Shown here one piece after another: positions 4,742 to 64,000 of a stretch of 64,000 nucleotides of DNA (positions are counted from its first letter, which is position 1; each line of letters starts with the position of its first letter). The stretch spans positions 23,446 through 87,445 of the forward strand of contig JBAYHJ010000002.1 of the NCBI GenBank assembly GCA_041666225.1. The letters are read 5' to 3'. The notes beneath the pieces were generated by a model. The model saw only the letters and a program-made list of their open reading frames with translations, had not been told where the DNA came from and made no database searches. The position numbers and the translations under genes were made by a program. This stretch comes from Minisyncoccota bacterium (GTDB lineage Bacteria > Patescibacteriota > Minisyncoccia > Phycocordibacterales > UBA9973).

Positions 4742-4788
4742 TAATATTTTATATTGAAAATATTGACTTTTTCTGGTATATTTAGAAA

Positions 4789-5898: not shown

Positions 5899-5929
5899 CA
5901 CATCTTGTAATAAATTAAAATATCTTTTT

Positions 5930-6505
5930 ATGAAAAACAGTTGGCAAAAAGCAGAAGAGATTTTAAATAAAGATGGGGTAGTTGTACTACCCACTGATAC
6001 TTTATATGGAATAATAGCTAGTGCCTTATCTAAAAAAGCTGTTGAAAAATTGTATAAGATTAAGGGTCGAATTGAAAATAAACCCTTTATTGTATTGATA
6101 AATTCTTATAAGGATTTAAATAAGTTTGGGATAAAAATAGACAGAGAACACTCTGTTTTTTTGCAAAAAATTTGGCCTGGAAAAGTTAGTGTTATTTTCC
6201 CTTGCACATTAGACAAATGGCATTATGTTCATCGTGGAGTAGAATCAATAGCACTTAGAATGATTAGTCCTAAAAACAAAAATTTATTTAATTTGATTAA
6301 TAAAGTAGGCCCACTTGTTGCACCAAGTGCAAATAAGGAAGGTGATAGAGCTGCAGAGGATATATTAGAAGCTAAAAAATATTTTGGAAATGAAGTATCT
6401 CTATATATAAATGGAGGCAACAGGAAATTTAAATCATCAACATTGGTTAAGTTTAAAAATAATAGTTGGGTTGTCTTAAGGCAAGGGGAAGTAATAATTA
6501 AGTAA
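5930..6505 (+). CDS. tsaC: L-threonylcarbamoyladenylate synthase TsaC/YrdC family
   Basis: VVLPTDTLYGIIASA followed by KIKGRIENKPFIVLI matches the Sua5/YciO/YrdC fold signature. Confidence 0.8.
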   Translation: MKNSWQKAEEILNKDGVVVLPTDTLYGIIASALSKKAVEKLYKIKGRIENKPFIVLINSYKDLNKFGIKIDREHSVFLQKIWPGKVSVIFPCTLDKWHYVHRGVESIALRMISPKNKNLFNLINKVGPLVAPSANKEGDRAAEDILEAKKYFGNEVSLYINGGNRKFKSSTLVKFKNNSWVVLRQGEVIIK

Positions 6506-6531
6506 AAAGAGTAGCTACTTGCTACTCTTTT
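6506..6531. terminator. bidirectional intrinsic terminator shared by the convergent tsaC and DUF1003 genes
   Basis: Perfect hairpin AAGAGTAGC-TACTT-GCTACTCTT flanked by A/T runs, lying between and overlapping the two stop codons. Confidence 0.6.
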
Positions 6532-7075
6532 TACTTAATTTAGGTATCTTTTTTATTTTATTTTGTTTTTTAAGTTCTATAACTTCTTCTATTAATTTTC
6601 CAAGGGAATCTTCAATTCTTCTCATTATTTCATCGTCTTTTTTTTGTTCTATTTCCTCAATATCTTCTTCTTCATTAATCTCATCAACATCTTTCTGAAT
6701 CTCATCCACATCTTTTTCGATTTCTTCCACGTCTTCTTGAATCTCATCAACATCTTTCTGAATCTCATCCACGTCTTCTTGAATTTCTCCGACATCACGA
6801 GCCACAGCATGCAATTTTCTTGCTTGGCGATTTACACTCATTTGTATGAAGATAGAAAGGTAAATAGCTTCAAGAGAGACAATTGTTGTTAGAACAAGAA
6901 GAATCTTATCCATAGCTATACCATAAAAATAAAGTAAAAATGCAACGATAAATAACGTCGTATGAATAACCAATGAATTAGTAGAGCCAATCCATCTAGT
7001 TGCTCTAATAGCAATTTTATCTAGACCATCTGCTGTTTTTTTTCTTGAAACTTCCATTAGGTGTTTATTATACAC
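6515..7075 (-). CDS. DUF1003-family membrane protein with an acidic heptad-repeat tail
   Basis: The N-terminal part has two TM helices and the RQ(A/E) motif typical of DUF1003. The C-terminal part is DVDEIQK-type repeats. Confidence 0.65.
   Translation of the reverse strand: MYNKHLMEVSRKKTADGLDKIAIRATRWIGSTNSLVIHTTLFIVAFLLYFYGIAMDKILLVLTTIVSLEAIYLSIFIQMSVNRQARKLHAVARDVGEIQEDVDEIQKDVDEIQEDVEEIEKDVDEIQKDVDEINEEEDIEEIEQKKDDEIMRRIEDSLGKLIEEVIELKKQNKIKKIPKLSKKSSK
6626..6799 (-). repeat. in-frame tandem 21-bp repeats encoding heptads (DVGEIQE / DVDEIQK / DVDEIQE / DVEEIEK / DVDEIQK / DVDEINE)
   Basis: Near-identical 21-nt units are visible on the plus strand (aatctcatcaacatctttctg, aatctcatccacatctttttc and so on) across about 6655-6790. 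Confidence 0.8.
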
Positions 7076-50253: not shown

Positions 50254-51327
50254 TTAGTTATTAACTGTAGTATTTACGGTTGTACTACTTTCGACTTTTA
50301 TAGTTTTATCTTCTGTTTTAGTTTCGTTTTCAACTTCAACACTACTTTCTACTTCATCAACCTTGGGAATTTGTATTAATACGGTTGTTGCTTCTTTTAC
50401 GGCAATGTGAGCTTTTTTAACTTGTTCGCGTAAAGCTTTTATATCTTTTGTGAAAGAGTCACGAAGATTTTTCATTGCAATCTTAAGAGTTACTTCATCT
50501 GTAATAGTTCCTATCTCGTAAGTCTTTTTGGATTGTATGTCTATTGCTTCTCTTGTGGATGCTATAACTGTCTTAGCGGCTTCTATTTTTAGTTTAATAG
50601 CAGTTACATCTAAACCTTTAGCTTCTGCTTTTGTTGTTCGAGATTCTATACTAACAAGGACATTTTCAATTTGATCTGTTTTAACAGAAAGACTTTCTGT
50701 TATTTTTAAATTTAATCCCAATATAATATCAACAATTTTTTCTGCTGAGATTTTTTTATTCTCATCTTTTATTTTATTAAGATTTTCTTTAAAAGTAACT
50801 TTTGTTTCTTCTATTTTTTGTTTAGCTTGTTCTCTGTTTAATTCAATTTTAGCTTTAAATTCTTCGCGTTTAATTTTTACTAATTCAACCATTTGTTCAA
50901 GTTGGTTTTTATATACCTCTTTTTCATTTTCTAATTCATCTTTTAGAGTTTTGACTTCACCCTTGAATTCATCACGTTTAATCTTAATATCTTCTCTATT
51001 ACCTTTTAAATCACCTCTTATTTCTTTAAATTTATTTTTAATTTCTTCACCCTTTGAATCATCATCATCATCTTCTTTTAAATCTGAATCATCTTTCTCG
51101 TCATCAGGACAGACAAATTCACAATCAGGACCTGTTCTTCCAACTGAGGTACCATCTGAGCACAATTTTGCATCCATTGTGCAAGCAACAACTGACGCAT
51201 CTTCTTCTATTTCTATGCCATCTTTAGCATAAGCAACAAAACCAAACATTAATGATAAAACTAAAACAATTGATGACACGCTAATTTTTATTTTTTTACT
51301 CATTTTTTGAAGATAGACCATAGCCAT
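50254..51327 (-). CDS. hypothetical secreted coiled-coil protein with a Cys-rich N-terminal segment and an acidic linker
   Basis: Signal-like start (MSKKIKISVSSIVLVLSLMFGFVAYA, probably at 51303), a four-Cys segment, a DDDDD run, then long K/E heptad-rich sequence. Confidence 0.55.
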   Translation of the reverse strand: MAMVYLQKMSKKIKISVSSIVLVLSLMFGFVAYAKDGIEIEEDASVVACTMDAKLCSDGTSVGRTGPDCEFVCPDDEKDDSDLKEDDDDDSKGEEIKNKFKEIRGDLKGNREDIKIKRDEFKGEVKTLKDELENEKEVYKNQLEQMVELVKIKREEFKAKIELNREQAKQKIEETKVTFKENLNKIKDENKKISAEKIVDIILGLNLKITESLSVKTDQIENVLVSIESRTTKAEAKGLDVTAIKLKIEAAKTVIASTREAIDIQSKKTYEIGTITDEVTLKIAMKNLRDSFTKDIKALREQVKKAHIAVKEATTVLIQIPKVDEVESSVEVENETKTEDKTIKVESSTTVNTTVNN

Positions 51328-51489
51328 TTTTTAAATAAGCTAAATCTACATAAATTAATTTATAAAACAAACATTACACTTAAACTGCTCATTATTAACT
51401 TTTAATGAGACTCATTAATTATAATATTATTATAATTTTCATGCAAACAAGAAAAACCTGTAATTTATGGTTATTTATTAAGGTGTTTT

Positions 51490-52461
51490 TTATTTTATAA
51501 CATTGTTAATAACTTTTCCTGTTTCAAGGGCAGAAATTATATTTCGGGCGACAAGCTCAGCCATCATATCACGTGCTGATTGACGAGCTGACGCAATATG
51601 AGGAGTTAAAATAATATCTGGCAATTTAGTAAGACCTTTTGTTAATTTAGGTTCAAATTCAAAAACATCGAGTGCTGCACCACGAATAATATTATTTTTT
51701 AGGGCGTACACCAATGCTTTTTCATCGATAACTGGACCTCTTGAAGTATTTACAAGAAAAGCAGTTTTCCTCATACTTTCTAATGATTTTTTATTTATTA
51801 AATGATGTGTGCTAGGTAAAAGTGGTACATGAAGAGAAACAATATCAGCTTCACAAAGAACTTCCTCTGTCGTTTTTCTTATTGTTTCATTAATATTATC
51901 TAATTCAACAGATTCTTTAATATCGCTATAAATAATTTTTGATCCAAAACCATAGTGAAGAATTTTGGCTACTTCTGTCCCTATTTGGCCAGCTCCAATT
52001 AAGCCGATTACCTTCCCTTTCATGTCAGTTCCAACAAATAAATCTGGATCCCAACCTTTATATTTACCACGACGAATAAATTCATCTCCTTCAACTAATC
52101 GAGTAGTTAAAGCAAGCATGAGGGCTACTGTATGTTCTGCTACAGCTGTCGCTGAGGTTCCTGGAGTATTTGAAATACAGATATTTCTTTTTTGAGCTTC
52201 TTCTAAATCAATATTATTATAACCAACAGAAAAGTTTGCACAGACTTTTGATGTTGGACAAGAATCAAAAATTTCTTTATCTATTGGGTCTGTTAGAAAA
52301 GAAATAACACCATCGTAAGGTTTCTTTTTTAATTCTTTCATCAATTCTTTTTTTGTTGGTGGCTTTTTAAATTTACCAATGTCAAAAGTTATTCCTTTCT
52401 CTCTTAATAATCTAAGCCCAGCTTCTGGAATTTTTCTTGTAATGTAAATATGTTTAGTCAT
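51490..52461 (-). CDS. D-isomer-specific 2-hydroxyacid dehydrogenase (GyaR/HprA/SerA-like)
   Basis: NAD-binding GLIGAGQIGTEVAKIL and the catalytic R/E/H context (TSRGPVIDEKAL ... TPHIAS). Confidence 0.8.
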   Translation of the reverse strand: MTKHIYITRKIPEAGLRLLREKGITFDIGKFKKPPTKKELMKELKKKPYDGVISFLTDPIDKEIFDSCPTSKVCANFSVGYNNIDLEEAQKRNICISNTPGTSATAVAEHTVALMLALTTRLVEGDEFIRRGKYKGWDPDLFVGTDMKGKVIGLIGAGQIGTEVAKILHYGFGSKIIYSDIKESVELDNINETIRKTTEEVLCEADIVSLHVPLLPSTHHLINKKSLESMRKTAFLVNTSRGPVIDEKALVYALKNNIIRGAALDVFEFEPKLTKGLTKLPDIILTPHIASARQSARDMMAELVARNIISALETGKVINNVIK

Positions 52462-52470
52462 ATATTATAT

Positions 52471-53265
52471 TTAACCAATTTTAGTTGTATTAATATGTTG
52501 CTCAGCGACCAAAGAAATTTTTTCCATCATCGAAATTGCTTCTACTGGATATTTTCCTTTTGCCGATTCTTCTGAAAGCATAACTCCATCGGCGCCATCT
52601 AGTATTGCATATGCAACATCCGATACTTCTGCTCGAGTAGGAATTGGATTATCAACCATTGAGAGTAACATTTGAGTAGCAACAATAACCATTTTACCAG
52701 CTTTTTTGCATTCTTCTATTATATAGTGTTGAACAAAAGGAATTTTTTCAAGTGGGAATTCATTGCCCAAGTCGCCACGTGCAACCATTATTGCATCAGT
52801 TTCTTTTATAATTTCATCAAGGTTTTCTACTGCTAATTGACGTTCAATTTTTGCAATTACTTTTTGATTACCCCCTTTTTCTTTTATAAGTTTTTTTAAT
52901 TGGATAATATCTGAAGCTTTTCCAACAAAAGACAATGCGATATAATCAACATTTTGTTTAATTCCAAAATCTAAATTCTCAATATCTTTTTCTGTTATTA
53001 CGTCTTGTTCTTCTTCTCCGCCATAATGATGCCCATCATCATCTTGGACTCGTGGCCCAGATAAATCTTGGATTATCTCTATATTTTTATTTTGCTCTTT
53101 AGCAGAATCTCTTATATTTTTAATAACTTCTGTAAACCATTCATAATTGCCCCAAGAGAAATTTAAACGAGCAATATCCATATGGTGTTCTATCATTTTT
53201 GAAATAATTTCTTTACCCTCACTTGCTGGTCCTATCGTTGCGATAATTTTTGTTTCAGATTCCAT
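52471..53265 (-). CDS. pyk: pyruvate kinase, barrel domain only (264 aa; C-terminal regulatory domain absent)
   Basis: [11 protein letters not shown], the [11 protein letters not shown] region, ARGDLG and [12 protein letters not shown] are all PK signatures. Confidence 0.75.
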
Positions 53266-53295
53266 ACAATTAATTTTCTTTGGCTCGCCGAAGTT

Positions 53296-54525
53296 TTAAC
53301 TTAGGTGGCTTGTTATTTTAATAATTCTTTCATACTTAACATCTCTTTCTTTTGGGCCAAGTGCTCCAGCTTTAATTCCAAAACATCCATATGCACAGAC
53401 CAAATCAGCAATAAAGTCATCCATAGTTTCTCCACTTCTGTGACTTACAACACAATCAATGTTATTATCTCGCGCCATTTTCATTGTAGAAAGAGTTTCT
53501 GTAAGTGTCCCAATTTGGTTTGGTTTTATGAGTATACATTTAATACTTTTCTTATCAATTGCTATTTGTAATCTTTCAATATTTGTGACAGTTAAATCAT
53601 CTCCGATTACTTTAATATCCCCAATTTTTTCTTGTAGTTTAGTAAAGCCATCGAAATCTTCTTCGTCCAGCGGGTCTTCTATTGAAAGCATTGGGAATTC
53701 ATTACAGATTTTTTCATATAGCTCTATCATTTCATCTGTTGACCAAGTCTTATTCATAAATTTATAAATTCCTAAATCATGATCATAAAATGAACTAGCG
53801 GCAACATCGAGAGCAAATTTTATTTTATCAAAATAACCCAATTCTTCCACTGCTTTTTTCATTAAATTAAGTGGTGTCATAATATCATCTACATCAAGAG
53901 CAACCCCACCTTCATCACCTTTTATAACAGCCCCAAATTCACTTTCTAACATCTCATCTAATCTTTTTTGAATGTTGCGACTTATTTCTACACTTTCAAC
54001 AGATGTTTCAACTTGAGGAACAATATGAAATTCTTGAAAAGCTAAACGTGTAGCAGCGTGTTTCCCTCCATTGATTAAATTAAAATATAAAAATGGTTGA
54101 TTTCTAGATGGTTTTATTTCTGCTAATGTTCTTAAATATTCATAAACTTCCATATTTAATACCTTAGCTGCAGTTTTAGCACAAGCAATACTGACCCCAA
54201 TTAAACTATTACCTCCAAGATTTGTCTTTTGATGAGTTCCATCTAGTTTAATCATTATCTCATCAATTTGTTTTTGCTTATCGACTTCGATTCCAATTAA
54301 GGCATTTTTGATTTCAGTATTAATTTTATTAACTGCGTTTAAAACTCCGCTTTTTCCACCTAAAGCATCACGAAGTTCGCAGGCCTCATATTTTCCAGTA
54401 CTTGCTCCTGATGGAACGTCAAAACTTCCTACTATATCACCAACATAAACAGAAACCCTGAGAGTCGGATTTTTACGTGAATCTAATATTTGCTCGGCTT
54501 GTATGTTTGTGATCTTTTTATCCAT
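53296..54525 (-). CDS. eno: enolase
   Basis: ITNIQAEQILDSRKNPTLRVSV ... SGASTGKYEA, with metal/substrate ligands in the ILIKPNQIGTLTET and SHRSGET motifs. Confidence 0.95.
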   Translation of the reverse strand: MDKKITNIQAEQILDSRKNPTLRVSVYVGDIVGSFDVPSGASTGKYEACELRDALGGKSGVLNAVNKINTEIKNALIGIEVDKQKQIDEIMIKLDGTHQKTNLGGNSLIGVSIACAKTAAKVLNMEVYEYLRTLAEIKPSRNQPFLYFNLINGGKHAATRLAFQEFHIVPQVETSVESVEISRNIQKRLDEMLESEFGAVIKGDEGGVALDVDDIMTPLNLMKKAVEELGYFDKIKFALDVAASSFYDHDLGIYKFMNKTWSTDEMIELYEKICNEFPMLSIEDPLDEEDFDGFTKLQEKIGDIKVIGDDLTVTNIERLQIAIDKKSIKCILIKPNQIGTLTETLSTMKMARDNNIDCVVSHRSGETMDDFIADLVCAYGCFGIKAGALGPKERDVKYERIIKITSHLS

Positions 54526-54593
54526 GTATTTATATTCTAATGATAATTATGCTTGTATTATATAATAAATATAGTTATTTTCCAATAATTAAA

Positions 54594-54623
54594 AATACCT
54601 CACACAAATGAGGTATTTTTAAT
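54594..54623. terminator. intrinsic terminator, minus-strand sense, for the 22-aa ORF
   Basis: AAAAATACCTCA-CACAAA-TGAGGTATTTTT. Confidence 0.55.
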
Positions 54624-54627
54624 AGAT

Positions 54628-54696
54628 TTATTTCTTGGGTGCTTTAACTTTCTTTGGTTTTTTTACTTCTTTTCTGTGCCCATCTCCTTTTGCCAT
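54628..54696 (-). CDS. putative 22-aa ultra-basic peptide (MAKGDGHRKEVKKPKKVKAPKK); possibly a bTHX-like small ribosomal protein
   Basis: ATG..TAA ORF immediately followed by a dedicated terminator hairpin. MAKGD-basic resembles the MGKGD start of Thx that I recall. Below the ORF-track cutoff. Confidence 0.3.
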   Translation of the reverse strand: MAKGDGHRKEVKKPKKVKAPKK

Positions 54697-54873
54697 ATAG
54701 TTTTTAACGCGAAACAAATTATTTTATAAAAAAATGTCTTCCTTTTCCCTCATACAGTTTTTTTAGAATATAATTTGTGAAGCTTCTTATTAATAATATT
54801 TTATATTATAACATAATTAAAATATTTTTAAAAATATTTGCCTATATTATTATCTCTTTGATATAATAGATGG

Positions 54874-55038
54874 ATGGATGATGAAAATGAAAAAATTGAA
54901 GAAACATCAAAAGATCCCGTTTGCCCTCGTTGTGGACTACGTTCTTATGATAGCGTCTGCCAAGCTTGCGGTACCCCAATCGTTGATAAAAAAGACGATG
55001 AAGAGGAAGACTATGATTGGCGAGAAAAACACCGATAA
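54874..55038 (+). CDS. 54-aa zinc-ribbon protein (double CxxC)
   Basis: MDDENEKIEETSKDPVCPRCGLRSYDSVCQACGTPIVDKKDDEEEDYDWREKHR. TATAAT at 54862-54867 lies 6 nt before the ATG (leaderless-like). A terminator hairpin overlaps the stop. The two track ORFs in this interval are alternative frames of the same DNA. Confidence 0.5.
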   Translation: MDDENEKIEETSKDPVCPRCGLRSYDSVCQACGTPIVDKKDDEEEDYDWREKHR

Positions 55039-55057
55039 AAGTTTTGTCGGTGTTTTT
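55027..55057. terminator. bidirectional terminator between the zinc-ribbon gene (+) and the 55062..55853 gene (-)
   Basis: ACACCGA-TAAAAGTTTTG-TCGGTGTTTTT. Confidence 0.6.
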
Positions 55058-55061
55058 AAAT

Positions 55062-55853
55062 TTATTTAACCACTTCAAATTTTGTGACTTTAACACTTTG
55101 CGGATTTTTGGTGTATGTATAAATTATGTTAGCTTTACTTTGAATATGTCCGTCTTCATATGTGGCTTCTGCTGTATGAGTAGCAGGATTTACTGATACA
55201 GATATTACATACCACTCACCTCCTAGTACTGGCTTGTTTATGGCGAGAGTTTTTATATTGTCGCGGATATATTTTTCTGTAAATAATTTTTCATCAAGTG
55301 TATCACAATCCATTTGGCTCATTGCTTTAATATAATAAAGATTTGTTTTGTCTTTATAAACGTAAACTCCATCCCCTCTATCTACCATTTCTCCAAAACC
55401 AACTGTGGCACTACCATCTCCAAATTGAATCGCAAGTTCTTCTTTTACTTCCATTCCTTCAGCCCTTGAATCCCACCAAACACTTGCCTTCCTTGCCATA
55501 ATTTTTTGATCAAGTGGTCCAACTGTTCCCTCAAATTTTCCAACTTTTGAATCGGATTCAGCTGGGAGGTTTTGGAATTCTCCTGTTACTTTATCATTTA
55601 CACTTCCGTTAGTATTTATTTTAAGCCAAGCTACCTCATAGAAACCACTTGTCATTTTTTCTCCCCTATAGTAACAAAGACTGATTGGTTTTTGATCTTC
55701 TTCTTTTGGTTTATCGATTGTATCTATTTGTTCATCTGGAATTAGAACCACAGGAGTTTCTTTTTTATAATAAATACTAAAAACTACTCCACCAACGATT
55801 AGTATAATAAGCGCTATTAAAATTATTTGTTTGATTTTATATTTATTTTCCAT
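55062..55853 (-). CDS. hypothetical membrane-anchored extracytoplasmic protein (263 aa)
   Basis: N-terminal TM helix followed by a beta-rich soluble domain; last gene of the lexA-helicase transcription unit. Confidence 0.55.
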   Translation of the reverse strand: MENKYKIKQIILIALIILIVGGVVFSIYYKKETPVVLIPDEQIDTIDKPKEEDQKPISLCYYRGEKMTSGFYEVAWLKINTNGSVNDKVTGEFQNLPAESDSKVGKFEGTVGPLDQKIMARKASVWWDSRAEGMEVKEELAIQFGDGSATVGFGEMVDRGDGVYVYKDKTNLYYIKAMSQMDCDTLDEKLFTEKYIRDNIKTLAINKPVLGGEWYVISVSVNPATHTAEATYEDGHIQSKANIIYTYTKNPQSVKVTKFEVVK

Positions 55854-55886
55854 AGTTTAATTATAGCACTTTATGAAAGACGCTAC

Positions 55887-57608
55887 TCATATAAATAATT
55901 TTGCAATCCTAATCTCTTCAAAAGAGAGATTAGCCCCTTCTTTATCTAGAATAGTTTTAAGAGGGCTTAGTTTACCCTTATCATCCCCTTTCAATTGATT
56001 ATTTGCTTTTCTAACTAATTCTAAATTTTTCTTTGTTGGTTGCTCTATGTGCTTGAGATTGATATTTTTATCTATTTCTTTTAATTCTTCTATATGACTG
56101 ACTATCGTTCCAAATACTAAACCTCTCTCTTTGGCGATAGTCTTAATATTTTTACCGCTATCCAATAATTCTTTTGTAATTTGGATTGAAGGAATTTTTG
56201 TGTCTTTTATCTTTGTTTTAATATTTTTTTTAGTACCAATTTTAATATTACCCCCCATTTTATTAATAAAATCTTCTTCTAGCTTATTTTGCTCAGTATC
56301 ACTTAATTTTTTAAATAATAATTCATTATTAAAACTCTGGTTTTTTAGGTCTTGATCAAACTCTAAAATAGCAGGGTCAACCATAAGTGAGTCATTGTTA
56401 AAACCTACCAAACTAATCCCCTCTAGCGTTCTAACTCGTGATAATGCCACATAACCCATTCCGTACGAAAAAGTCCTCGACAGGTCGATTAGAGCGTTAT
56501 CTAGAGACATTCCTTGGCTCTTGTGGATGGTTATCGCCCATGCAAGACGAAGTGGAATTTGGGAAAGTGAAGCCTTGATTTTACCATCTTCTTCTATTGC
56601 CCATATCTCAGGTTTCAGGTCTATTTTCTTACCATTGTAAAGCTCAACTATTGGGTTGCCATTTTCTTTAATAAAACCAATAACCTTACCGCGTGAACCA
56701 TTTACATACCCTTCTTCAAAATTATTTTTAATACACATCACTTCTGCTCCGATTTTTAATTTTAATTTTTCATGAGCAAGGCAACTTTTTTTTAAAATAT
56801 CAACCAACATCTCTGGACCTTGTGTTGTCATTTGGCATACTCTCTCATCTTCATTGATTAATGAAAGTTCAATATTATTTATATCATCTACGTTTATATT
56901 GTGAGTATAGAGTTTTGTGGCTTTTACTCCGTCTTTCAATTTAGCTCCCACTCTACTTCGTAATAATTCGAAATGTTTTTCCTCAATGGAGTTTGTACGA
57001 ATTGTATTTAAAATCTCAGTTAGATCATTATCATCTTGACGATGCTGTTCTTCCAAATAACAAATAGCAGGATTTAGTATTTGCCAAGAGGTACTATTAA
57101 AAATCATTGGTGAGCCATAAGTCGGACTTAGGGCTGGATCATTTGCCCTAAGTCCGACATAGGGCGCTTTTTCTATTGGTGGTAATTGAAAAAAGTCCCC
57201 GGAAAGGATTACTTGCAATCCCCCGAAGGGTTTATTGTTCCTTTTGAATCTTTGGCAGACTTTTTCGATCATATCGAGTTGTGAAGCGTGAAGCATTGAG
57301 ACTTCATCAATTATCAAAACACGTGCCTTCTCGAATCTTTTCCAAAGATATTTTTTTTCTTCCAATTGCTCTAAACCTTTTTCGTCTAAAAAATTACGAA
57401 TACCGATTCCTGACCAAGAGTGAATTGTCATACCGTTCATGTGAGTTGCGGCAATTCCTGTTGAAGCAGTGACTGCACAAGCGATATCATGCTCGTCTAG
57501 ATATGAAATATATTTGTTTAATAAAAAAGTCTTTCCACTACCAGCACTACCGGTTAGATATATATTTACCCCGGTTTTCATTATTTTCAAAGCCTGTTCT
57601 TGAGTCAT
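55887..57608 (-). CDS. Pif1/RecD-family ATP-dependent DNA helicase with a C-terminal HTH
   Basis: Walker A LTGSAGSGKTF, Walker B LIIDEVSM, QLPPI motif III-like segment and ITIHKSQGMS; the C-terminal GKNIKTIAKERGLVFGTIVSHIEEL is HTH-like. Confidence 0.8.
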   Translation of the reverse strand: MTQEQALKIMKTGVNIYLTGSAGSGKTFLLNKYISYLDEHDIACAVTASTGIAATHMNGMTIHSWSGIGIRNFLDEKGLEQLEEKKYLWKRFEKARVLIIDEVSMLHASQLDMIEKVCQRFKRNNKPFGGLQVILSGDFFQLPPIEKAPYVGLRANDPALSPTYGSPMIFNSTSWQILNPAICYLEEQHRQDDNDLTEILNTIRTNSIEEKHFELLRSRVGAKLKDGVKATKLYTHNINVDDINNIELSLINEDERVCQMTTQGPEMLVDILKKSCLAHEKLKLKIGAEVMCIKNNFEEGYVNGSRGKVIGFIKENGNPIVELYNGKKIDLKPEIWAIEEDGKIKASLSQIPLRLAWAITIHKSQGMSLDNALIDLSRTFSYGMGYVALSRVRTLEGISLVGFNNDSLMVDPAILEFDQDLKNQSFNNELLFKKLSDTEQNKLEEDFINKMGGNIKIGTKKNIKTKIKDTKIPSIQITKELLDSGKNIKTIAKERGLVFGTIVSHIEELKEIDKNINLKHIEQPTKKNLELVRKANNQLKGDDKGKLSPLKTILDKEGANLSFEEIRIAKLFI

Positions 57609-57625
57609 AGAAACTTATTATACCA

Positions 57626-58192
57626 TTAGTATTTTCTAATGACAGCTTTTACAACAGCGATAATATTTAAATATATTTTAGGGTGTATGGGTTTGAAGTC
57701 TTTATTGGCAGGTATGAGCCAAACTTTGTCACCATCTTTTTTAAAATATTTCATTGTAAACTCTCCATCAACATTGGCGATAACTATTTGCCCATCTTTT
57801 GCTTGATTTGTTTTCTCTACTAGTATCATATCTCCATCCGCAATATGAGCATCGATCATAGAGTCACCATCTACAGTGAGCATATATGAGTTCTCTTTTT
57901 TATTAATTAAATATTCATCGATATTTATAGTATCAGTTAATTCTTCTGTTACATCAGCAGGAAAACCGGCTTTCACAGAGCCAAGCATTGGGATAGAAGA
58001 CAATGATATATCAGCAACAAGCCGACCAAGATGATCTTTGGCGACTATTCCTTCTTCTATGAATTTATCAACAAGTCGAGCTACTGCATTTTTGGATTTG
58101 AAACCAAATAAGCTCATCATCTCTCTGTATGTCGGCATGCGATTATCTTTGTTGTAAAATCGAATGAGTTTTTCTTTGTAATTATTATACAT
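57626..58192 (-). CDS. lexA: LexA repressor (S24 peptidase)
   Basis: N-terminal winged HTH, Ala-Gly cleavage site in LGSVKAGFP, and Ser/Lys dyad context VDGDSMIDA ... TMKYFKK; 188 aa. Confidence 0.85.
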   Translation of the reverse strand: MYNNYKEKLIRFYNKDNRMPTYREMMSLFGFKSKNAVARLVDKFIEEGIVAKDHLGRLVADISLSSIPMLGSVKAGFPADVTEELTDTINIDEYLINKKENSYMLTVDGDSMIDAHIADGDMILVEKTNQAKDGQIVIANVDGEFTMKYFKKDGDKVWLIPANKDFKPIHPKIYLNIIAVVKAVIRKY

Positions 58193-58210
58193 ATAACTTA
58201 CTTTATTATA

Positions 58211-58423
58211 TTAGATATTAGAAAATTGTGGAAATCTATTTAGTGAATTAAGAAAGTGTCCCCAGAAACCCTTTCTTTTGTGTTGACGAATTTTATGAAG
58301 AAGTTGTTTGTGCTCACGAGCTTCTTTTGAATAATCAATCCCTTTGATTATTTTGTCATCAATTTTTTTATTGATGTTGTGAATCTCACGTTCTATAATT
58401 TTTAAATATTGTTCTCTACTCAT
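58211..58423 (-). CDS. hypothetical small basic protein (70 aa), first gene of the lexA operon
   Basis: Only 18 nt separate it from lexA on the same strand; a Cheo-type box/promoter lies ~40 nt upstream of its start. Confidence 0.5.
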   Translation of the reverse strand: MSREQYLKIIEREIHNINKKIDDKIIKGIDYSKEAREHKQLLHKIRQHKRKGFWGHFLNSLNRFPQFSNI

Positions 58424-58459
58424 AAATATATATAATTACTATTAATTAACTACATTTAT

Positions 58460-58489
58460 AGTATATGTGAACGCTCGTTCACTGTCAAG
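58460..58489 (-). promoter_or_regulatory. promoter TTGACA-17-TATACT whose spacer is a Cheo-type SOS box GTGAACGAGCGTTCAC (GAAC-N4-GTTC)
   Basis: The minus strand reads TTGACA GTGAACGAGCGTTCACA TATACT. The 16-bp palindrome at 58467-58482 fits the Gram-positive-type LexA operator consensus CGAAC-N4-GTTCG. Confidence 0.6.
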
Positions 58490-58549
58490 AAAATACCTGT
58501 GGATAACCACCACATCCAAAAGAGAAATTAGAGATTTGTTTTCTTTAAT

Positions 58550-59578
58550 TTAATTCTGTACCCAACCTGTAAATTTGAAAGTTTTAATTAGGTTTTCAAG
58601 TCCAACCGTATTTGTTCCACCAAACTCATATCCTACATTACCTTTTTTAAACCAATAAAAAGTAGCTCCGCTGTATGTATAAACTTTAAAAGTAGTCTCT
58701 CCAATTTTTTGGTCTTTTACATATGTATAACTAGAAATAGTAGATTTCTCCCAAAAAGAAGAATCTGTTACATAACCAAGACTTCCGACGGGCATAGAAA
58801 TTCTTATAATCGGTCCAGTTGTTAGTTGTTCTTCTTTCGGAATAAATCCTTTTGGTAATTCAATAGTGAATCCATGATTTTGATAAGTAATTGAATTAGA
58901 ATTTAACTCTGATTGATCAGTGTTATATTTTGTATCCCCTACTGGAATTTGTTTTTCTTTTATTAAATTATTTTCTTCAAAACAAAAAGTGTCCGCGTTA
59001 ACAATTGATTGGTATCTTGAAGTTGTTATTGATTCTGTGCTTCCCGCTGAGTCTACACAAAAATAATCATAACCATAATAACGATCATCTTTTTTAGGTT
59101 TTTTCTTTAACTCTGCAGCTAAAACAAAACTATCATTATCACTAAAGCATTTAGTTTTAACTTCTATTTCATTAATTTTATTTAACAATTCCGCAACAAT
59201 TTTATCTTCGCATGCATTTGAATATGAATTATTAGAATCAAAATTATATTGAATTTGTGCACGCGCATTTGCTAAATTGGCTTTTATCATTCGATTTACT
59301 GATGGATTGAAATCATTTCCATGTGTATACATCCAAACTGCTAAAATCAAAGTTGGCAAACTCAATATTATTAATATCAGAGCAATTGATTTTTGTTTAT
59401 TAATTTTAGTAAATCCTACTATAAGAGATACTATATTTATTATAATAAATAATAATATATAACCACCACCTCCCGTATCATTAGCAATAAAACCACCGGA
59501 GATAAAAGCATTAATATAAACAAAATCTGAAATGATTAAAAAAAATATTAATATACCATAAATTATTTTATTTTTCAT
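58550..59578 (-). CDS. hypothetical membrane protein with an extracytoplasmic C-terminal domain (342 aa)
   Basis: Three N-terminal TM helices with a GGGG segment, then a Cys-containing soluble domain. Promoter GTGACT-17-TATAAT at 59585-59613 with the ATG 6 nt after the -10 (leaderless). Confidence 0.55.
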   Translation of the reverse strand: MKNKIIYGILIFFLIISDFVYINAFISGGFIANDTGGGGYILLFIIINIVSLIVGFTKINKQKSIALILIILSLPTLILAVWMYTHGNDFNPSVNRMIKANLANARAQIQYNFDSNNSYSNACEDKIVAELLNKINEIEVKTKCFSDNDSFVLAAELKKKPKKDDRYYGYDYFCVDSAGSTESITTSRYQSIVNADTFCFEENNLIKEKQIPVGDTKYNTDQSELNSNSITYQNHGFTIELPKGFIPKEEQLTTGPIIRISMPVGSLGYVTDSSFWEKSTISSYTYVKDQKIGETTFKVYTYSGATFYWFKKGNVGYEFGGTNTVGLENLIKTFKFTGWVQN

Positions 59579-59637
59579 AGTTAAATTATATTACGAATAA
59601 AGCTAAAAGTCACCTTAATATATAAGGTGACTCTATT

Positions 59638-59680
59638 GGCTCCGAACTTGGGATGATGTTCGAATGGAAATTATAAAAGG
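59638..59680. repeat. intergenic repeat copy A (GCTCCGAACTT ... GATGTTCGAATGGAAATTATAAAA)
   Basis: Shares >80% identity over its two arms with copies at 60404-60478 and 61268-61300; lies ~50-100 nt upstream of the promoter of the 58550..59578 gene. Confidence 0.6.
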
Positions 59681-59697
59681 ATAATTAATGGATATAT

Positions 59698-59742
59698 AAA
59701 TAGAAACCGCTAGTAGATAGAGTCTCTATCAAACTAGCGGTT
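59698..59742. terminator. intrinsic terminator (minus sense) after the 59747..60199 gene
   Basis: AACCGCTAGT-AGATAGAGTCTCTATCAA-ACTAGCGGTT, with a T-run on the minus strand. Confidence 0.55.
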
Positions 59743-59746
59743 CATT

Positions 59747-60199
59747 TTAATTAGCACAAAATAGTTGTTTCTTGGACTGTAATACAAAGAATATTGAATC
59801 CTCCAGTAAACGCTTGCGGTCAAAATCATTTCTCCATGGTTCGATAAAGAAATTTACATTTTGATGTTCACATATACAGTAAGTTCCCTCTTCCCATACG
59901 GTCACATGAACCCAATGATATGTACCACACACACCACATTTTCTTAAGAAGAAAATATTCTTACTGGCCAATAATTTATCTTCCAGAAAGAACTTATTCT
60001 TTGTCATGAGTTCTTCAAATACATCATAAAAAGAAAGTGATTCAAGGGTTACACCATTAAATAAAGGGAGGTCATCCATGATGTCGCTATACTTAGGAGG
60101 CACGGCCCCTTTAACAAGCTTGTAGCCCTTCACTGCGATAAGAAGTGATGCTTCATGTAATTCAACATGGAAGCCAATTGTTGGTTCTAAATATTTCAT
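59747..60199 (-). CDS. hypothetical Cys-cluster protein (150 aa)
   Basis: Contains CGVCGTYHWVHVTVWEEGTYCICEH (CxxC ... CxC); no recognised family. Confidence 0.5.
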   Translation of the reverse strand: MKYLEPTIGFHVELHEASLLIAVKGYKLVKGAVPPKYSDIMDDLPLFNGVTLESLSFYDVFEELMTKNKFFLEDKLLASKNIFFLRKCGVCGTYHWVHVTVWEEGTYCICEHQNVNFFIEPWRNDFDRKRLLEDSIFFVLQSKKQLFCAN

Positions 60200-60265
60200 A
60201 GTATTAATTTTTAGAGATTTAACATTTTTTTTTCACATTACTTCTAACTATGTGTAAAGTCAATA

Positions 60266-60330
60266 GGTTCGAACTTCTACTAACCCCTGCCAGCCCTCCT
60301 GTAGTCGGGAGCAGGCTGGTTCAAAAAATA
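60266..60330. repeat. partial repeat copy D (GGTTCGAACTTC) fused to a GC-rich stem-loop CCAGCC-CTCC-TGTAGTCG-GGAG-CAGGCTGG
   Basis: CGAACTTC is identical to the core of copy B. The adjacent 44-nt segment is >65% GC in a ~30% GC genome and folds into a nested hairpin. Confidence 0.5.
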
Positions 60331-60403
60331 ACCATTATAAAATATGGCTGAAAATTGCACATTCGGTCTACTGACCTCAGTATCTTCCTCATTCCCATTC
60401 GTC

Positions 60404-60478
60404 GAGCTCCGAACTTCATTTCCCTAAATGACCTACTAATTACTGAAAGGGAGAATGTTCGAATGGAAATAATAAAAA
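60404..60478. repeat. intergenic repeat copy B (the same two arms separated by a ~40-nt insert)
   Basis: GAGCTCCGAACTT (60404-60416) ... GAATGTTCGAATGGAAATAATAAAAAA (60453-60478). Confidence 0.6.
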
Positions 60479-60479
60479 A

Positions 60480-60510
60480 TAGTGGTATGAAATTTAATCC
60501 ATACCACCAT
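60480..60510. terminator. intrinsic terminator (minus sense) after the 60519..61139 gene
   Basis: GTGGTATG-AAATTTAATC-CATACCAC, with a T-run on the minus strand. Confidence 0.5.
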
Positions 60511-60518
60511 TTCGATGA

Positions 60519-61139
60519 TTAAAATTGAAGCACAAAGTCATTTCTTACAAATGTATTCCATGAAGAATACCATCCTATCCTGAGACTTCTGTTTTTTGAT
60601 ACATCAACTGATACACAAGGAAAGTAAATGTCATCATTTATAACAAAAGCACTTCTGAGGGCATATATAACTCCTTGGAAATATTGCAAAAAGAAATCAT
60701 AACCCCTCAAATAAATTGCCCACAATTGAAACATATCTAACTGTCTTTCAATTATTTTTTCTCTTTCAATAAAAGCTAGTAGATTGTGGGGGTTAGAAAG
60801 ATGCCCAAACATGTCCTTTACCTCAATAGTATTTACATCTCTGACATCAAAAATATAACCCCTCTCTAATAGATCAGTGTTATCTTTAAAATAAAAAGAT
60901 CCATCAAGATTTTCATTGTGGGGCAACTTAAATGGAATTGGTCTACGCACTCTTATTTTTGGATCATTAACATTTTCCAAAAAATAAAAAGCGTCCTTTA
61001 GTACTATTTGCAATATGTCAGGATGACAATTCTCCCAATATGTAAGCACTTCTGTGGGTATAACACCACGAGGAAATTGAAGTTGAATCTTTTGTGTTAA
61101 CTCCAATTCCTGATTTGAAATAAAAGTCTTTTTACTCAT
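60519..61139 (-). CDS. hypothetical protein (206 aa)
   Basis: Strong SD (AAAAAAGGAGG on the minus strand) and promoter TTGACA-17-TAATCT at ~61190-61218; no recognisable domain. Confidence 0.55.
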   Translation of the reverse strand: MSKKTFISNQELELTQKIQLQFPRGVIPTEVLTYWENCHPDILQIVLKDAFYFLENVNDPKIRVRRPIPFKLPHNENLDGSFYFKDNTDLLERGYIFDVRDVNTIEVKDMFGHLSNPHNLLAFIEREKIIERQLDMFQLWAIYLRGYDFFLQYFQGVIYALRSAFVINDDIYFPCVSVDVSKNRSLRIGWYSSWNTFVRNDFVLQF

Positions 61140-61267
61140 GGTAAACCTCCTTTTTTAAATTGTTTAGAACTATGTTTATTATCCATTTTAGATTAATCCT
61201 AAATAGATATATTGTCAAACACATAATAATTCTCTATATAAGGTTCACAATATTCACAAAGTTCGCA

Positions 61268-61300
61268 GAGCTCCGAATTTAGGATGATGTTGGAGATTTA
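61268..61300. repeat. intergenic repeat copy C (GAGCTCCGAATTT-AGGATGATGTTGGAGATTTATTGAATAAAG)
   Basis: Left arm identical to copy B (GTTCG-N6-TCCGAA context); right arm diverged. Lies upstream of the promoter of the 60519..61139 gene. Confidence 0.5.
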
Positions 61301-61320
61301 TTGAATAAAGTAGATAAATA

Positions 61321-61361
61321 GAAAAACCCGCCCAAGAAGAACGGATCTTCCTAAACGGGTT
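61321..61361. terminator. intrinsic terminator (minus sense) after the 61368..61799 gene
   Basis: AACCCG-[GAAGAACGGATCTTC inner stem]-CGGGTT, then TTTTC on the minus strand. Confidence 0.55.
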
Positions 61362-61367
61362 AATTGT

Positions 61368-61799
61368 TTAAATCTCTTCTTTACTTATTCTGTTCATTAA
61401 AAAACAGTGACCAATAGCATCTTTTACGGCATCTCCCAAACTGTTACCTTTACCTGCTTTTGAAGAACTCCATCCTGGTATTTCTATCCAGATTTCATAC
61501 CGACCAGAAACATGATCTAAAACATGATCTTTACCTCTGAATAATTTTGTTACTTTAAAGCCAATCCCATCGGCAATGCGACAAAGATCTACAAATTGAT
61601 CAACACCACTAGGATAATCAGATAATTGTTTGCATAATTTTTCACGCATTTCTTTGACGTGAGTTTCCTTAATTTCCAATTTTTCGTCAGCTTCTTTCTT
61701 AATTAAAAGATCAGCTAATTCTTGTCCAGTTGGGATAAATGATCCAGGGTTCATTTCCCTTATAACATCTATCGGCTTTTTGTTTTCAGAATTTTCCAT
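61368..61799 (-). CDS. hypothetical protein (143 aa)
   Basis: No recognisable family; charged N-terminus; C-terminal motif LGDAVKDAIGHCFLMN. Confidence 0.5.
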   Translation of the reverse strand: MENSENKKPIDVIREMNPGSFIPTGQELADLLIKKEADEKLEIKETHVKEMREKLCKQLSDYPSGVDQFVDLCRIADGIGFKVTKLFRGKDHVLDHVSGRYEIWIEIPGWSSSKAGKGNSLGDAVKDAIGHCFLMNRISKEEI

Positions 61800-61837
61800 A
61801 ATTACAAAATGTTAAGTTAGACAATTTTTTAGGAATT

Positions 61838-62116
61838 TTACCAGCCTCCGGTGCCAGTGATGAATTGTTTTACCCTATTCTCAAACCTAGAGGGTATTTT
61901 TTTCTGCTTTTTAAAGAATGAATTTGGATTCTTTCCAATACCAAGTAGAACTTTACCTTTCTCAGTAATGAATCCATCCCAATATCCTTTTTCTTCTAGC
62001 TTACCAACTTGATAGCTGGGAACAAATCCTAGTCCTCCACCACTGTAAAGCTTCTTAAGTATCTTAATCAATCCAGTTGAAATTTTCGGTTTTCTGACAT
62101 TTTTTTTCTTTTTCAT
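61838..62116 (-). CDS. hypothetical Gly/Lys-rich small protein (92 aa)
   Basis: Basic N-terminus with GGGLGF and GTGGW Gly-rich segments; no family assignment. Confidence 0.4.
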   Translation of the reverse strand: MKKKKNVRKPKISTGLIKILKKLYSGGGLGFVPSYQVGKLEEKGYWDGFITEKGKVLLGIGKNPNSFFKKQKKIPSRFENRVKQFITGTGGW

Positions 62117-62235
62117 ATAGATGGTTTTTAATTGGTCCTCATAAAAGACAAAAATTTCTCTTCTCTGAGGGCCAATAAAACGATATGTCGAAAAACTATT
62201 ATTATTTGTACAATAACATATAAATATTAATTTGT

Positions 62236-63126
62236 CTACAGAAAAAATTCTTCGATTTTTTTAGGATGAATATCGGGGAATAGTTCTAAAGCGCGGTTAT
62301 TTGTCACTATCATTTCGTTTTTAAAACTACTTAGCATACATCTACCTACGTTTGTTTGTTCTTTGGAAGTAAAAAGATTTAAAAATAATCCAGCTATTTT
62401 TTCAGGGAGTATCGGTATTCTAAAAATTATCATTTTTTTATTTTTAAACTTAGCATATTTTTTTACAAATTCTAGATAAGACATTGTCTCGCTTCCACCT
62501 ATTTCAATAATTTCATGGCTATCAATTTCAACATCAATAGAGTTTTCTAAATACAAAAGAGCGTCAGTTATTCCGATCGGTTGAGTTTTGGTTTTAGACC
62601 ATTTAGGAAGTGTTATGATTGGAGATTTCTCAACCAAATTTTTTACTATTTCGAAAGAGATACTTCCCTTCCCTATGATCATAGAAGCTCGAAATTCAAT
62701 AACTTCTTTTACATATTTACGTAAAATATTCCCAGTGTTATGCCTACTTAAAAGATGTTTTGAGAGTTTCTCATCATCATTTCCTAGTCCGCTCATATAA
62801 ATAAGCCTTCTAATATTTTTGGATTTTAGTGCACGGCCTGTTGTCTTGGCTGCTCGTGTTTCTTTGTCATAGAAATCATTTTTATCGCTTGCCATCATAT
62901 GAATAAAATAATATGCAATATCAATATCATAAAGAGCATTTTCTATTTCATCATAGTTTAAAACATTAGCTTTTATTATCTTTACGCGGTCTTTATATTT
63001 TTCATCAATATGGATATCATGTGGATTAATCGAAATAGCTGATATTTGGTGGTCAGTATTTAAAAGTAAATACCTCGTTAGATTTATTCCAACAAAACCC
63101 GATGCTCCAATAATAGCTATTTTCAT
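62236..63126 (-). CDS. NAD(P)-binding SDR-family epimerase/dehydratase-like protein (NmrA-like)
   Basis: MKIAIIGASGFVGINLTRYLL Rossmann GxxGxxG; 296 aa. Confidence 0.7.
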   Translation of the reverse strand: MKIAIIGASGFVGINLTRYLLLNTDHQISAISINPHDIHIDEKYKDRVKIIKANVLNYDEIENALYDIDIAYYFIHMMASDKNDFYDKETRAAKTTGRALKSKNIRRLIYMSGLGNDDEKLSKHLLSRHNTGNILRKYVKEVIEFRASMIIGKGSISFEIVKNLVEKSPIITLPKWSKTKTQPIGITDALLYLENSIDVEIDSHEIIEIGGSETMSYLEFVKKYAKFKNKKMIIFRIPILPEKIAGLFLNLFTSKEQTNVGRCMLSSFKNEMIVTNNRALELFPDIHPKKIEEFFL

Positions 63127-63128
63127 AT

Positions 63129-63662
63129 TTATTTAAAAAATATAGAAACTAAATCCCAAGGTAAATTCATAGTGAAAATGACAGTATATAAAACGATGAA
63201 AATTATTGGAATTTTCTTTTCGATAGATGACAATTTACGATATTTTGATGTATCTATTCCTTTCCCTAGTAATTCCCATTCAGTTTTAAAAAGAGATAAT
63301 GGTAATTTTTCTTCAATGGTGTGTATTACTCTAAATTTTGCTCTGTTAATATTTTTGTATGAAATAATTATTTCATACCAACAATAACAAATGGCAATCC
63401 CGACAAATGGGGCAAATAAAAATATTACAGAATTATTGTCAGTTAGATTTTTTGTTTCTAAATAACCAAGGACTCCGATGATAGCTGTATTTAAACCAAG
63501 AAAAAAATCGTTGGATTTATTTCCCCTGTCATTGGTGCTGTTATAAATGTGAAGATACATTCGGTATTGTTCCAAGTAATGATTTTCATAATTTAAATCT
63601 TCCCCATCATTATAATTTTTAACCCTAGAATACAAGAGACTGTCTAATTTATCTTTGTCCAT
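63129..63662 (-). CDS. hypothetical membrane protein (177 aa; soluble N-terminus, TM hairpin, C-terminal TM)
   Basis: Hydrophobic segments FFLGLNTAIIGVLGYL, VIFLFAPFVGIAICYCWYEIIISY and IPIIFIVLYTVIFTM; the overall layout resembles 2TM SLATT-like effectors. This is an impression only. Confidence 0.45.
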   Translation of the reverse strand: MDKDKLDSLLYSRVKNYNDGEDLNYENHYLEQYRMYLHIYNSTNDRGNKSNDFFLGLNTAIIGVLGYLETKNLTDNNSVIFLFAPFVGIAICYCWYEIIISYKNINRAKFRVIHTIEEKLPLSLFKTEWELLGKGIDTSKYRKLSSIEKKIPIIFIVLYTVIFTMNLPWDLVSIFFK

Positions 63663-63759
63663 AGTTTTATGTTTTTAATATTATATCTATATTTTAACAA
63701 ATATTTATTTAAATGTCAGGTACAAGGAAAGACCCAAAGCAATTGGGTGCCAAAATCAT

Positions 63760-64000
63760 TTATTTTTTATTTTTTGAGAGATAATTTTTTATTACTAAAA
63801 AGACTAAGAAAAGTAGAACTACGATAAGAATCCAAAAAGAAACATTTGATATACCTAAAATATTTCCTGCTGATGCTCCTAAAATGTTACCACCAGTATT
63901 ATTTAAATCTTCTGAATTTTGATCACTGTCTTGTTTTGTTGTTTCTGGTATTGATTCTTCTCTAGATGCTCCTAACACTTGTCCTTTATTATTTAAAGCC
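63760..64000 (-). CDS. hypothetical small membrane protein, N-terminus possibly beyond the right window edge
   Basis: The open frame continues to the window edge; the track start is a GTG. Gly/Asn-rich N-terminus followed by a C-terminal TM helix. Confidence 0.3.
   Translation of the reverse strand, partial: ALNNKGQVLGASREESIPETTKQDSDQNSEDLNNTGGNILGASAGNILGISNVSFWILIVVLLFLVFLVIKNYLSKNKK

Follow-up and report, generated by a model that had tools for sequence, protein, structure and literature searches.

Does a sequence repeated upstream of neighbouring small genes reveal that they are regulated together, or does it record how they came to lie side by side? This question is raised by a gene block at positions 58550-64000 of a 64,000-nucleotide (nt) stretch of contig JBAYHJ010000002.1 from Candidatus Paceibacterota, a lineage of the candidate phyla radiation (CPR). 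The whole stretch is referred to here as the window, all coordinates are its own, and L-numbers denote other sequence stretches, which are metagenome contigs or loci of related genomes. CPR bacteria, or Patescibacteria, have tiny genomes, and their gene exchange is poorly known. The initial annotation described eight consecutive genes on one strand, which the list of open reading frames (ORFs) bears out, together with a repeated intergenic element that was taken for a shared transcription-factor site or a small dispersed repeat. This element, here called A, is probably a site-specific recombination junction, consisting of one conserved arm and the core (C)GGAGC of an attachment site used by a family of large serine recombinases (LSRs), whose natural target in Paceibacterota would be the 3' end of tRNA-Asn(GTT).

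Read on the gene strand, A has the consensus ATTCGAACATC-N-TCCCAAGTTCGGAGC and is 34-40 nt long on its own. Exact, mismatch and profile searches all recovered it where the initial annotation had placed it. The window holds one canonical copy, two damaged copies and one related half-copy, all on the minus (gene-sense) strand:

59637-59676, minus strand: A copy 1, canonical (TTATAATTTCCATTCGAACATCATCCCAAGTTCGGAGCCA in sense; profile E = 7e-13), between the unit of a 150-amino-acid (aa) gene and a 342-aa gene.
59605-59634, minus strand: hairpin and T-run forming the right (sense) flank of copy 1, a type of right flank common after copies elsewhere.
60404-60475, minus strand: A copy 2, split into a left arm (60449-60475) and a right part, AAGTTCGGAGC (60404-60416).
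61268-61302, minus strand: A copy 3, with a degenerate left arm (CTCCAAC for TTCGAAC; E = 0.028).
60264-60283, minus strand: module C, a half-motif (GAAGTTCGAACC / TTAGTAGAAGTTCGAACCTA) related to A.

Exact matches to GCTCCGAAYTT lie at 59639, 60406 and 61270, and the 17-mer GATGTTCGAATGGAAAT is found at 59655 and, with one mismatch, at 60454. When up to three mismatches are allowed, the 17-mer has three matches in the window against 0.4 expected, and no shuffle reached three. A profile of A detected no further copy within the 64 kb, leaving the other 58 kb empty. Three copies are therefore present as first described, whereas the supposed partial fourth, module C, is only a related half-motif. 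Copy 2 is interrupted by a 32-nt hairpin insertion (60417-60448) and is probably inactive; the variable spacing first ascribed to the inverted CGAAC/GTTCG half-sites is due to this insertion in one copy. Copy 3, between the 143-aa gene and the 206-aa unit, keeps an intact ...AAATTCGGAGC.

Outside the window, the exact 23-nt pattern ATTCGAACATCNTYCYAMGTTCG has 86 matches in 77 metagenome stretches from many samples, compared with about one match expected by chance on a rough estimate of our own. Weaker copies adjoin homologues of the window genes in other genomes, and a profile built from the recovered copies gives 146 matches (E < 0.01) in 611 kb. Arrays reach about ten copies: L041 has seven at E < 0.01 and about ten at E < 1, L056 has six matches in 4.2 kb, and L090 also has six. 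Thus, A is indeed a dispersed repeat that recurs in many other loci. It does not behave as a generic repeat of the repetitive extragenic palindromic or miniature inverted-repeat transposable element type, since most of the window lacks copies and elsewhere they cluster in arrays.

The arrays have a regular anatomy. All 34 loci with at least two copies carry A in a single orientation. The intervals between successive copies (n = 63) have a median of 855 nt; of these, 36 contain a single gene and 17 contain two. Genes run in the direction of A in 74 cases and against it in 26. The cargo is very diverse, with only eight members in the largest cluster of 675 neighbour ORFs, and includes toxin-antitoxin pairs (RelE/RelB-like), NYN proteins, kinases, Nudix proteins and membrane proteins. 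A is preceded on its left by a stop codon or a terminator, whereas its right side has a palindrome resembling a terminator, a -35 box of the sigma-70 type, or the two together. Copies sit in gaps between stop codon and terminator, terminator and promoter, or two terminators. L079, L047 and L064 have left or right flanks in common but combine them differently, an identical left flank adjoining different right flanks and vice versa, and the switch point is A.

This anatomy bears directly on the proposal that A is a transcription-factor operator or UP-type site, possibly LexA-related, that co-regulates accessory genes. The copies in the window do lie upstream of promoters, a -35 box TTGAC(A/T) begins 0-15 nt past GGAGC in several loci, and CGAAC/GTTCG resembles the LexA half-sites of this genome. 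However, A keeps its orientation within arrays regardless of gene direction, and this constancy, combined with variable positions, fits a recombination junction and not an operator. In many cases A is placed between two terminators, or follows a stop codon and precedes a terminator, and at array heads a tRNA end replaces it. The distance to the -35 box is not fixed either: the predicted boxes in the window lie about 26, 52 and 141 nt away, not the 50-120 nt first reported, and overall the distance varies from 0 to more than 140 nt. A LexA operator was specifically rejected because A has CGAAC-N10-GTTCG (N42 in copy 2), whereas the genuine box of this genome is GAAC-N4-GTTC. Co-regulation through a shared site is thus very improbable.

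The tRNA end at the array heads supplies the anchor of the system. In 11 loci, tRNA-Asn(GTT) is located upstream of the array and co-oriented with it, and no other tRNA type has this upstream, co-oriented pattern relative to the arrays. Conserved core genes, namely fmt, a hibernation factor and a GIY-YIG gene, occupy the far side of tRNA-Asn. The flank modules that follow the terminal GGAGC of the tRNA are of the same kinds as those that follow the GGAGC of A. They comprise the B-C unit described below, long palindromic terminators, a TTGACT promoter and a GTGAAC-repeat module that is also present to the right of copy 3. Because the tRNA-Asn end and A share the modules behind them, the layout can be written as tRNA / unit / A / unit / A, with (C)GGAGC as the shared core.

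An anchor at a tRNA gene would also be expected if the copies of A were passive scars, that is, displaced and decaying tRNA-Asn 3' fragments left by integrations of the tycheposon or tyrosine-integrase type and now functionless. TTCGA and CGGAGC(C)A are common to A and the tRNA end, degraded recombinase genes occur within arrays, and a model of accretion and decay has been described for tycheposons (bioRxiv 10.1101/2020.12.28.424599). However, these two motifs are all that A and the tRNA-Asn end share, and A has 5 extra nt between them. A is therefore not a copy of the 3' part of the tRNA, as the direct repeats of tyrosine-integrase islands are. The +5-nt spacing is constant and, with other substitutions, sets A apart from every tRNA-Asn 3' end seen. 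A is also nearly identical over 77 stretches and better conserved than the adjacent proteins, whose homologues are 55-86% identical. Decay would scatter sequences around that of the tRNA, but A forms a sharp and distinct consensus, so that an origin as scars is disfavoured and appears improbable. A tRNA fragment or tRNA-like fold was rejected separately, as ARAGORN and Rfam find nothing and a T-arm cannot be drawn by hand. One tRNA-Asn gene, beside an LSR gene in L026 (1390-1860), is split in the anticodon loop by an insert of ~430 nt, possibly a group I intron residing in the tRNA gene of a CPR bacterium.

The preferred reading of A as a recombination junction predicts a recombinase, and the related loci contain one. 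An LSR gene with Resolvase, Recombinase and zinc-ribbon domains adjoins the site there. Two kinds of recombinase family recurred among the 267 ORFs that are 180 aa or longer: the LSR signature, Recombinase with Zn_ribbon_recom, and two rve transposases. Phage_integrase was absent from the families matched at least twice in either half of these ORFs, in a listing of the top 25 families. A motif scan of the 675 neighbour ORFs likewise gave no tyrosine recombinase. The idea that the recombinase is a recurrent neighbour gene was rejected, since all-against-all clustering of the 675 ORFs yielded no dominant family.

The LSR gene touches the site itself. Its ORF ends antisense on the 3' end of tRNA-Asn in five of five loci (L026, L051, L100, L101 and L102), three of which (L100-L102) are LSR homologues fetched independently of L026 and L051. 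The C-termini that lie on the tRNA end in L051 and L026 read ..WLRG* and ..LLRG*. Across 120 homologues, 31 tails read into the antisense tRNA T-arm (..GSNLRP..), 51 stop just past ..P-x-(W/G)-L-R (47 by a stricter pattern and 4 by a looser one), and one is of the A type. At A, LSR remnants in L045 and L061 abut the element at the same core. An intact 513-aa LSR abuts A in L103, where its tail, ..GLRVWEDVRTCIKEKP, is the antisense translation of A, an HTH_17 gene is adjacent, and the array has six profile matches, all on one strand. The right flank of copy 1 in the window starts with CAATAG, comparable to the recombinase-proximal GGAGCC(C)AATAGG of L100 and L103. The LSR islands are ~8-10 kb long and, in the loci seen, carry restriction-modification genes. 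In L101-L103, a gene for a 59-60-aa HTH_17 (excisionase-type) protein immediately precedes the LSR gene, and L100 has a 58-aa HTH_17 gene upstream of the two restriction-modification genes that precede its LSR. The HTH_17 protein could be a candidate recombination directionality (excision) factor.

The motif spacing of the two site types agrees with that of serine integrases. TTCGA and GGAGC are separated by 11 nt in 11 of 11 tRNA-Asn genes and by 16 nt in 71 of 82 copies of A. The LSR islands of L051 and L102 have candidate sites at their far ends, and in these TTCTA stands 16 nt from GGAGC. In serine integrases, the zinc-ribbon-domain motif of attB lies 5 bp nearer the centre than that of attP, at half-site positions 11-19 compared with 16-24 (PMC3783163). 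The difference between the gaps of 11 and 16 nt equals this published 5-bp shift; on this reading, the tRNA end would be a host-type arm and A an element-type arm. From these spacings we infer that crossover takes place inside CGGAG, with the tRNA end attB-like and A attP-like. Conservation in A is ~2 bits up to GGAGC and falls to ~0.2 bits just after it. A phage attachment site was rejected as the identity of A: a scan of IMG/VR viral contigs with a pattern fitting canonical copies returned only chance-like matches.

Together, these observations suggest how the arrays might be built. Mobile units would integrate beside tRNA-Asn, each leaving its attP-type arm, A, at the distal end, and newer insertions would push older units outward. 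Recombinase genes would then be lost, and what remains would be short promoter-gene-terminator cassettes bounded by A, which may still be mobilised in trans. Accretion could occur at tRNA-Asn or, as in the window, at secondary sites. Recombination at A is, in this proposal, read from sequence comparison. The window itself is best read as a small array away from the tRNA, in which the 206-aa and 150-aa genes would be two cassettes and only copy 1 is intact.

Several points weigh against this interpretation. The window and its 7-kb extension (71 kb in all) contain neither tRNA-Asn nor an LSR or any other recombinase, and the link of the window to the system rests on the homology of A. Array building requires the reaction of an incoming site with an attL- or attP-type junction, which is non-canonical for serine integrases. 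Sites of these enzymes normally have two recognisable half-sites, but here the left arm is strongly conserved and most junctions have no conserved right arm, the right flank reaching only ~0.2 bits. Partial dyad symmetry is found only in L061, where the LSR gene end acts as the right arm, and even there it is partial by our own reading of the sequence. TTCGA is also a universal motif of the tRNA T-loop, which makes its role as a recognition motif an assumption. Of the conserved positions, 23 were set by the search pattern and carry an ascertainment bias; GAGC lies outside that pattern, so its conservation is unbiased, and copies found independently are likewise unaffected. Finally, the far-end arm of the L051 and L102 LSR islands matches A at 15 of 27 positions in our own alignment, and the recombinase acting on canonical A may thus be a sister enzyme.

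Same-orientation arrays of small, diverse genes with toxin-antitoxin pairs also recall integrons. Here, A or an A-B-C unit of ~100 nt would be a folded site of the attC type, acted on by a tyrosine (IntI-like) integrase, and the genes would be integron cassettes. Inverted ..AAC/GTT.. boxes are present, as TTCGAAC...GTTCGGA in A and TTCGAAC...GTTCGAA across A-B-C. The A-B-C unit has a near-constant length and folds as a long imperfect hairpin, and, as with attC, conservation is concentrated to the left of the junction. However, the B-C part is missing from 83 of 97 full copies, leaving the ~100-nt palindrome in 14 of 97, and A is 34-40 nt long compared with 57-141 nt for attC and has no L''/L' pair. 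Its R boxes, TTCGAAC and GTTCGGA, fit RYYYAAC and GTTRRRY at five of seven positions each. A is conserved in sequence rather than in structure. When the copies are aligned, as the initial annotation proposed, changes in the hairpin of divergent copies weaken pairs, through mismatches or G·T wobbles, and no compensatory change appears. The cassettes have their own promoters and terminators, the ORF surveys above gave no tyrosine-recombinase motif and no recurrent Phage_integrase, and it is a serine recombinase gene that physically overlaps the core. An integron in the strict sense is accordingly unlikely. A serine-recombinase counterpart of the integron is more probable, though still less likely than not: single promoter-gene-terminator cassettes with one attP-type half-site would be captured one by one at the tRNA-Asn end and then excised and shuffled in trans by an LSR encoded elsewhere.

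The hairpins around A raise the further possibility of a structured or small RNA, acting as a 3'-untranslated-region stabiliser or processing site, or as a short transcript that ends at module B. The modules concerned lie between copy 2 and the 150-aa gene:

60322-60356, minus strand: module B, an A-tract/hairpin/T-tract that resembles a bidirectional terminator.
60284-60321, no strand assigned: GC-rich hairpin inserted between modules B and C.

Module B recurs behind A or behind tRNA-Asn in many loci. A terminator-like hairpin often lies behind A, a TATAAT-like hexamer often precedes it, and the variable hairpins have been inserted at positions that are fixed. Compared with its shuffles, the 231-nt spacer has a somewhat better fold (z about -2.7), and stem transitions produce G·U pairs when read on the sense strand. 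However, the fold z-score is equal on both strands, no change in the A hairpin is compensatory, and the orientation of A is independent of the flanking genes. Moreover, many copies lie past a strong terminator and before a promoter and so would not be transcribed. Rfam 15 covariance models left A unmatched, even at E up to 10. A function of A as RNA is therefore highly unlikely. A conserved hairpin was also rejected as the identity of the longer unit, because the consensus fold of A-B-C has only invariant outer pairs and the terminator stem.

The flanking modules have features of their own. Module C reads ..GTAGAAGTTCGAACC, with an 8-bp palindrome, GTTCGAAC, just before the -35 box; in the window this box is the TTGACT of the 150-aa gene, which follows module C directly. 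B-C units occur behind A or tRNA-Asn in the window (60264-60356), L062, L034, L051, L096 and others; the total length of A-B-C is 99-103 nt in 13 of 14 units and 114 nt in the remaining one. The B-C unit could be a promoter element, a second recombinase arm or an insulator. GC-rich CCTGCC...GGCAGG palindromes stand at fixed points in an AT-rich genome (60284-60321 in the window; L029, L040, L046, L096, L099 and, at ~3330, L017). Several lie exactly between the GTTCG and GAGC of A. The palindromes may represent a small hairpin that is mobile, or else an extension that the crossover site tolerates. A right-flank module of direct G(C/T)GAAC repeats, TGCGAACTTTGTGAATATTGTGAACC, is found at 61242-61267, after tRNA-Asn in L040 and after A in L061 and L047. 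Its half-sites resemble the LexA half-site GTGAAC.

The genes of the block, with the units that A delimits, are as follows:

58550-59578, minus strand: gene for a 342-aa protein that has membrane segments near its N-terminus; it lies downstream of copy 1 and is the last before the lexA operon.
59747-60199, minus strand: 150-aa gene, alone in the unit that copies 2 and 1 delimit.
60519-61139, minus strand: 206-aa gene, alone in the unit that copies 3 and 2 delimit.
61368-62116, minus strand: 92-aa and 143-aa genes, upstream of copy 3.
62236-63662, minus strand: gene for a short-chain dehydrogenase/reductase (SDR)/NmrA-like NAD(P)-binding protein (296 aa) and 8xMP gene (177 aa), on the same strand, without adjoining A.

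The initial annotation assigned a function to none of these genes except the SDR. This stands for the 342-, 150-, 206-, 143- and 92-aa proteins, which have no match to protein families or defence-system models. It does not stand for the 177-aa membrane protein (63129-63662), a member of the octameric membrane protein family 8xMP (PF24838; E = 4.6e-37). The latter also has weak PADLOC matches to the 2TM effector (E = 4e-4) and PycTM (E = 3e-3) models.

That the block is accessory and variable is supported by its homologues. Members of the 150-aa and 206-aa families have other neighbours in each of the further genomes examined, and A is usually next to them. The 150-aa protein has 26 homologues (55-100% identical), with different gene neighbours in each genome and A in the adjoining spacers. 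Its family has a confident AlphaFold model (pLDDT 83.5, pTM 0.82), and a search of the PDB with the predicted fold gave no significant match. About a third of the family has a C-terminal CxxC...CxxC extension, whereas the cysteines of the window protein, first described as a Cys-cluster protein, are not conserved within the family. The 206-aa protein has 15 homologues, and the one in L105 lies inside another A array, with the gene of a HicA toxin as its neighbour. Another is found in L104, where six small genes (3509-6630), a diacylglycerol kinase also among them, stand between rplB and rpsS of the ribosomal-protein operon; A is absent from this insert.

Two further features precede the 92-aa gene. 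A stretch of 43 nt (62196-62238), which begins at the SDR stop codon, is homologous to right flanks of A in L064, L079 and L013, and no A is left there. A 5'-leader hairpin, ATTGG...TCAGAG...CCAAT, at 62131-62176 (minus strand) precedes the 92-aa gene, and a similar one precedes a 150-aa homologue in L015 (~7950). As it is common to unrelated genes, it may be a shared leader or regulatory hairpin.

Two sister contigs cover the block and the neighbouring lexA operon. L001, a European Nucleotide Archive contig, is identical to the window from 50519 to 64000 and extends it by 7.1 kb, with all genes of the extension on the same strand. L002 is 99.95% identical to the window from 58432 to at least 64000 and beyond, and ~80% identical over the 70-aa, lexA and helicase genes, as calculated from mismatch counts. 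The strain-to-strain identity breaks sharply at ~58432 of the window (~7706 of L002), 9 nt before the 70-aa start codon, and this step suggests a boundary of recent recombination or transfer. The promoter of the 70-aa/lexA/PIF1-helicase operon (58460-58488, minus strand) reads TTGACA-gt-GAAC-gagc-GTTC-acaTATACT and has a LexA box between its -35 and -10 elements, which points to autoregulated SOS control of the lexA operon in this CPR genome.

Junction sequence, candidate recombinase and tRNA-Asn anchor would together make the flexible gene pool of CPR bacteria easy to find and to test. The 26-nt core is usable to fish cassettes from metagenomes, and in vitro assays could address the recombinase with both types of site. 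Functional studies would gain a defined set of cargo, made up mostly of unknown small proteins, toxin-antitoxin pairs and restriction-modification genes. If the integron-counterpart proposal were true, genome-reduced CPR bacteria would possess a dedicated gene-capture platform. The full-text literature searched describes no integrons, serine-recombinase islands or such cassette arrays in Patescibacteria/CPR.

Four known systems come closest. In staphylococcal cassette chromosome (SCC) elements, the large serine recombinases CcrAB or CcrC insert the element at the 3' end of rlmH, and tandem elements carry site repeats in the same orientation. Some SCC units, the pseudo-SCC elements, have no recombinase of their own (bioRxiv 10.1101/336396). 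The arrays described here would resemble SCC in the serine recombinase, the use of the 3' end of one conserved gene, the tandem accretion and the recombinase-less units. They differ from SCC in their target, tRNA-Asn instead of rlmH, and in their CPR host. In addition, their units mostly hold a single gene, with a median spacing of 855 nt compared with tens of kb, and what is repeated is an arm of 26-34 nt that has the spacing of attP, rather than the end of the target gene.

In Prochlorococcus, tycheposons build islands next to tRNA genes; one site is used repeatedly for integration, and newer elements push older ones outward. These islands contain fragmented integrases and scattered attachment-site repeats, and of 937 elements, 910 rely on tyrosine recombinases and a minority on an LSR (bioRxiv 10.1101/2020.12.28.424599). 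Both systems would be tRNA-side islands built by repeated integration at one site. However, the tycheposon repeats are partial tRNA copies, whereas A is distinct from the tRNA end and the only recombinase linked to it is of the serine type.

Integrons share with the arrays their anatomy, including same-orientation junctions after small genes, diverse cargo, toxin-antitoxin pairs and occasional inverted cassettes, as well as a fixed head site, which is attI in integrons and the tRNA-Asn end here. Unlike integrons, the arrays have no IntI or other tyrosine recombinase among the neighbour ORFs surveyed, A is short and conserved in sequence, and the cassettes bring their own promoters and terminators. 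As in the attachment sites of A118/LI, Bxb1 and phiC31, the distal motif lies 5 bp farther out in the element-type arm (PMC3783163), and a recombinase gene lies beside the site. In contrast to phage serine-integrase sites, the right half-site is unconserved at most junctions, many sites occur in tandem, and the LSR elements, in the loci seen, carry restriction-modification genes and not phage genes. Thus, tRNA-targeted islands and cassette accretion by serine recombinases are already known, whereas the mostly single-gene units, the attP-type arm as the repeat and the CPR host appear to be new.

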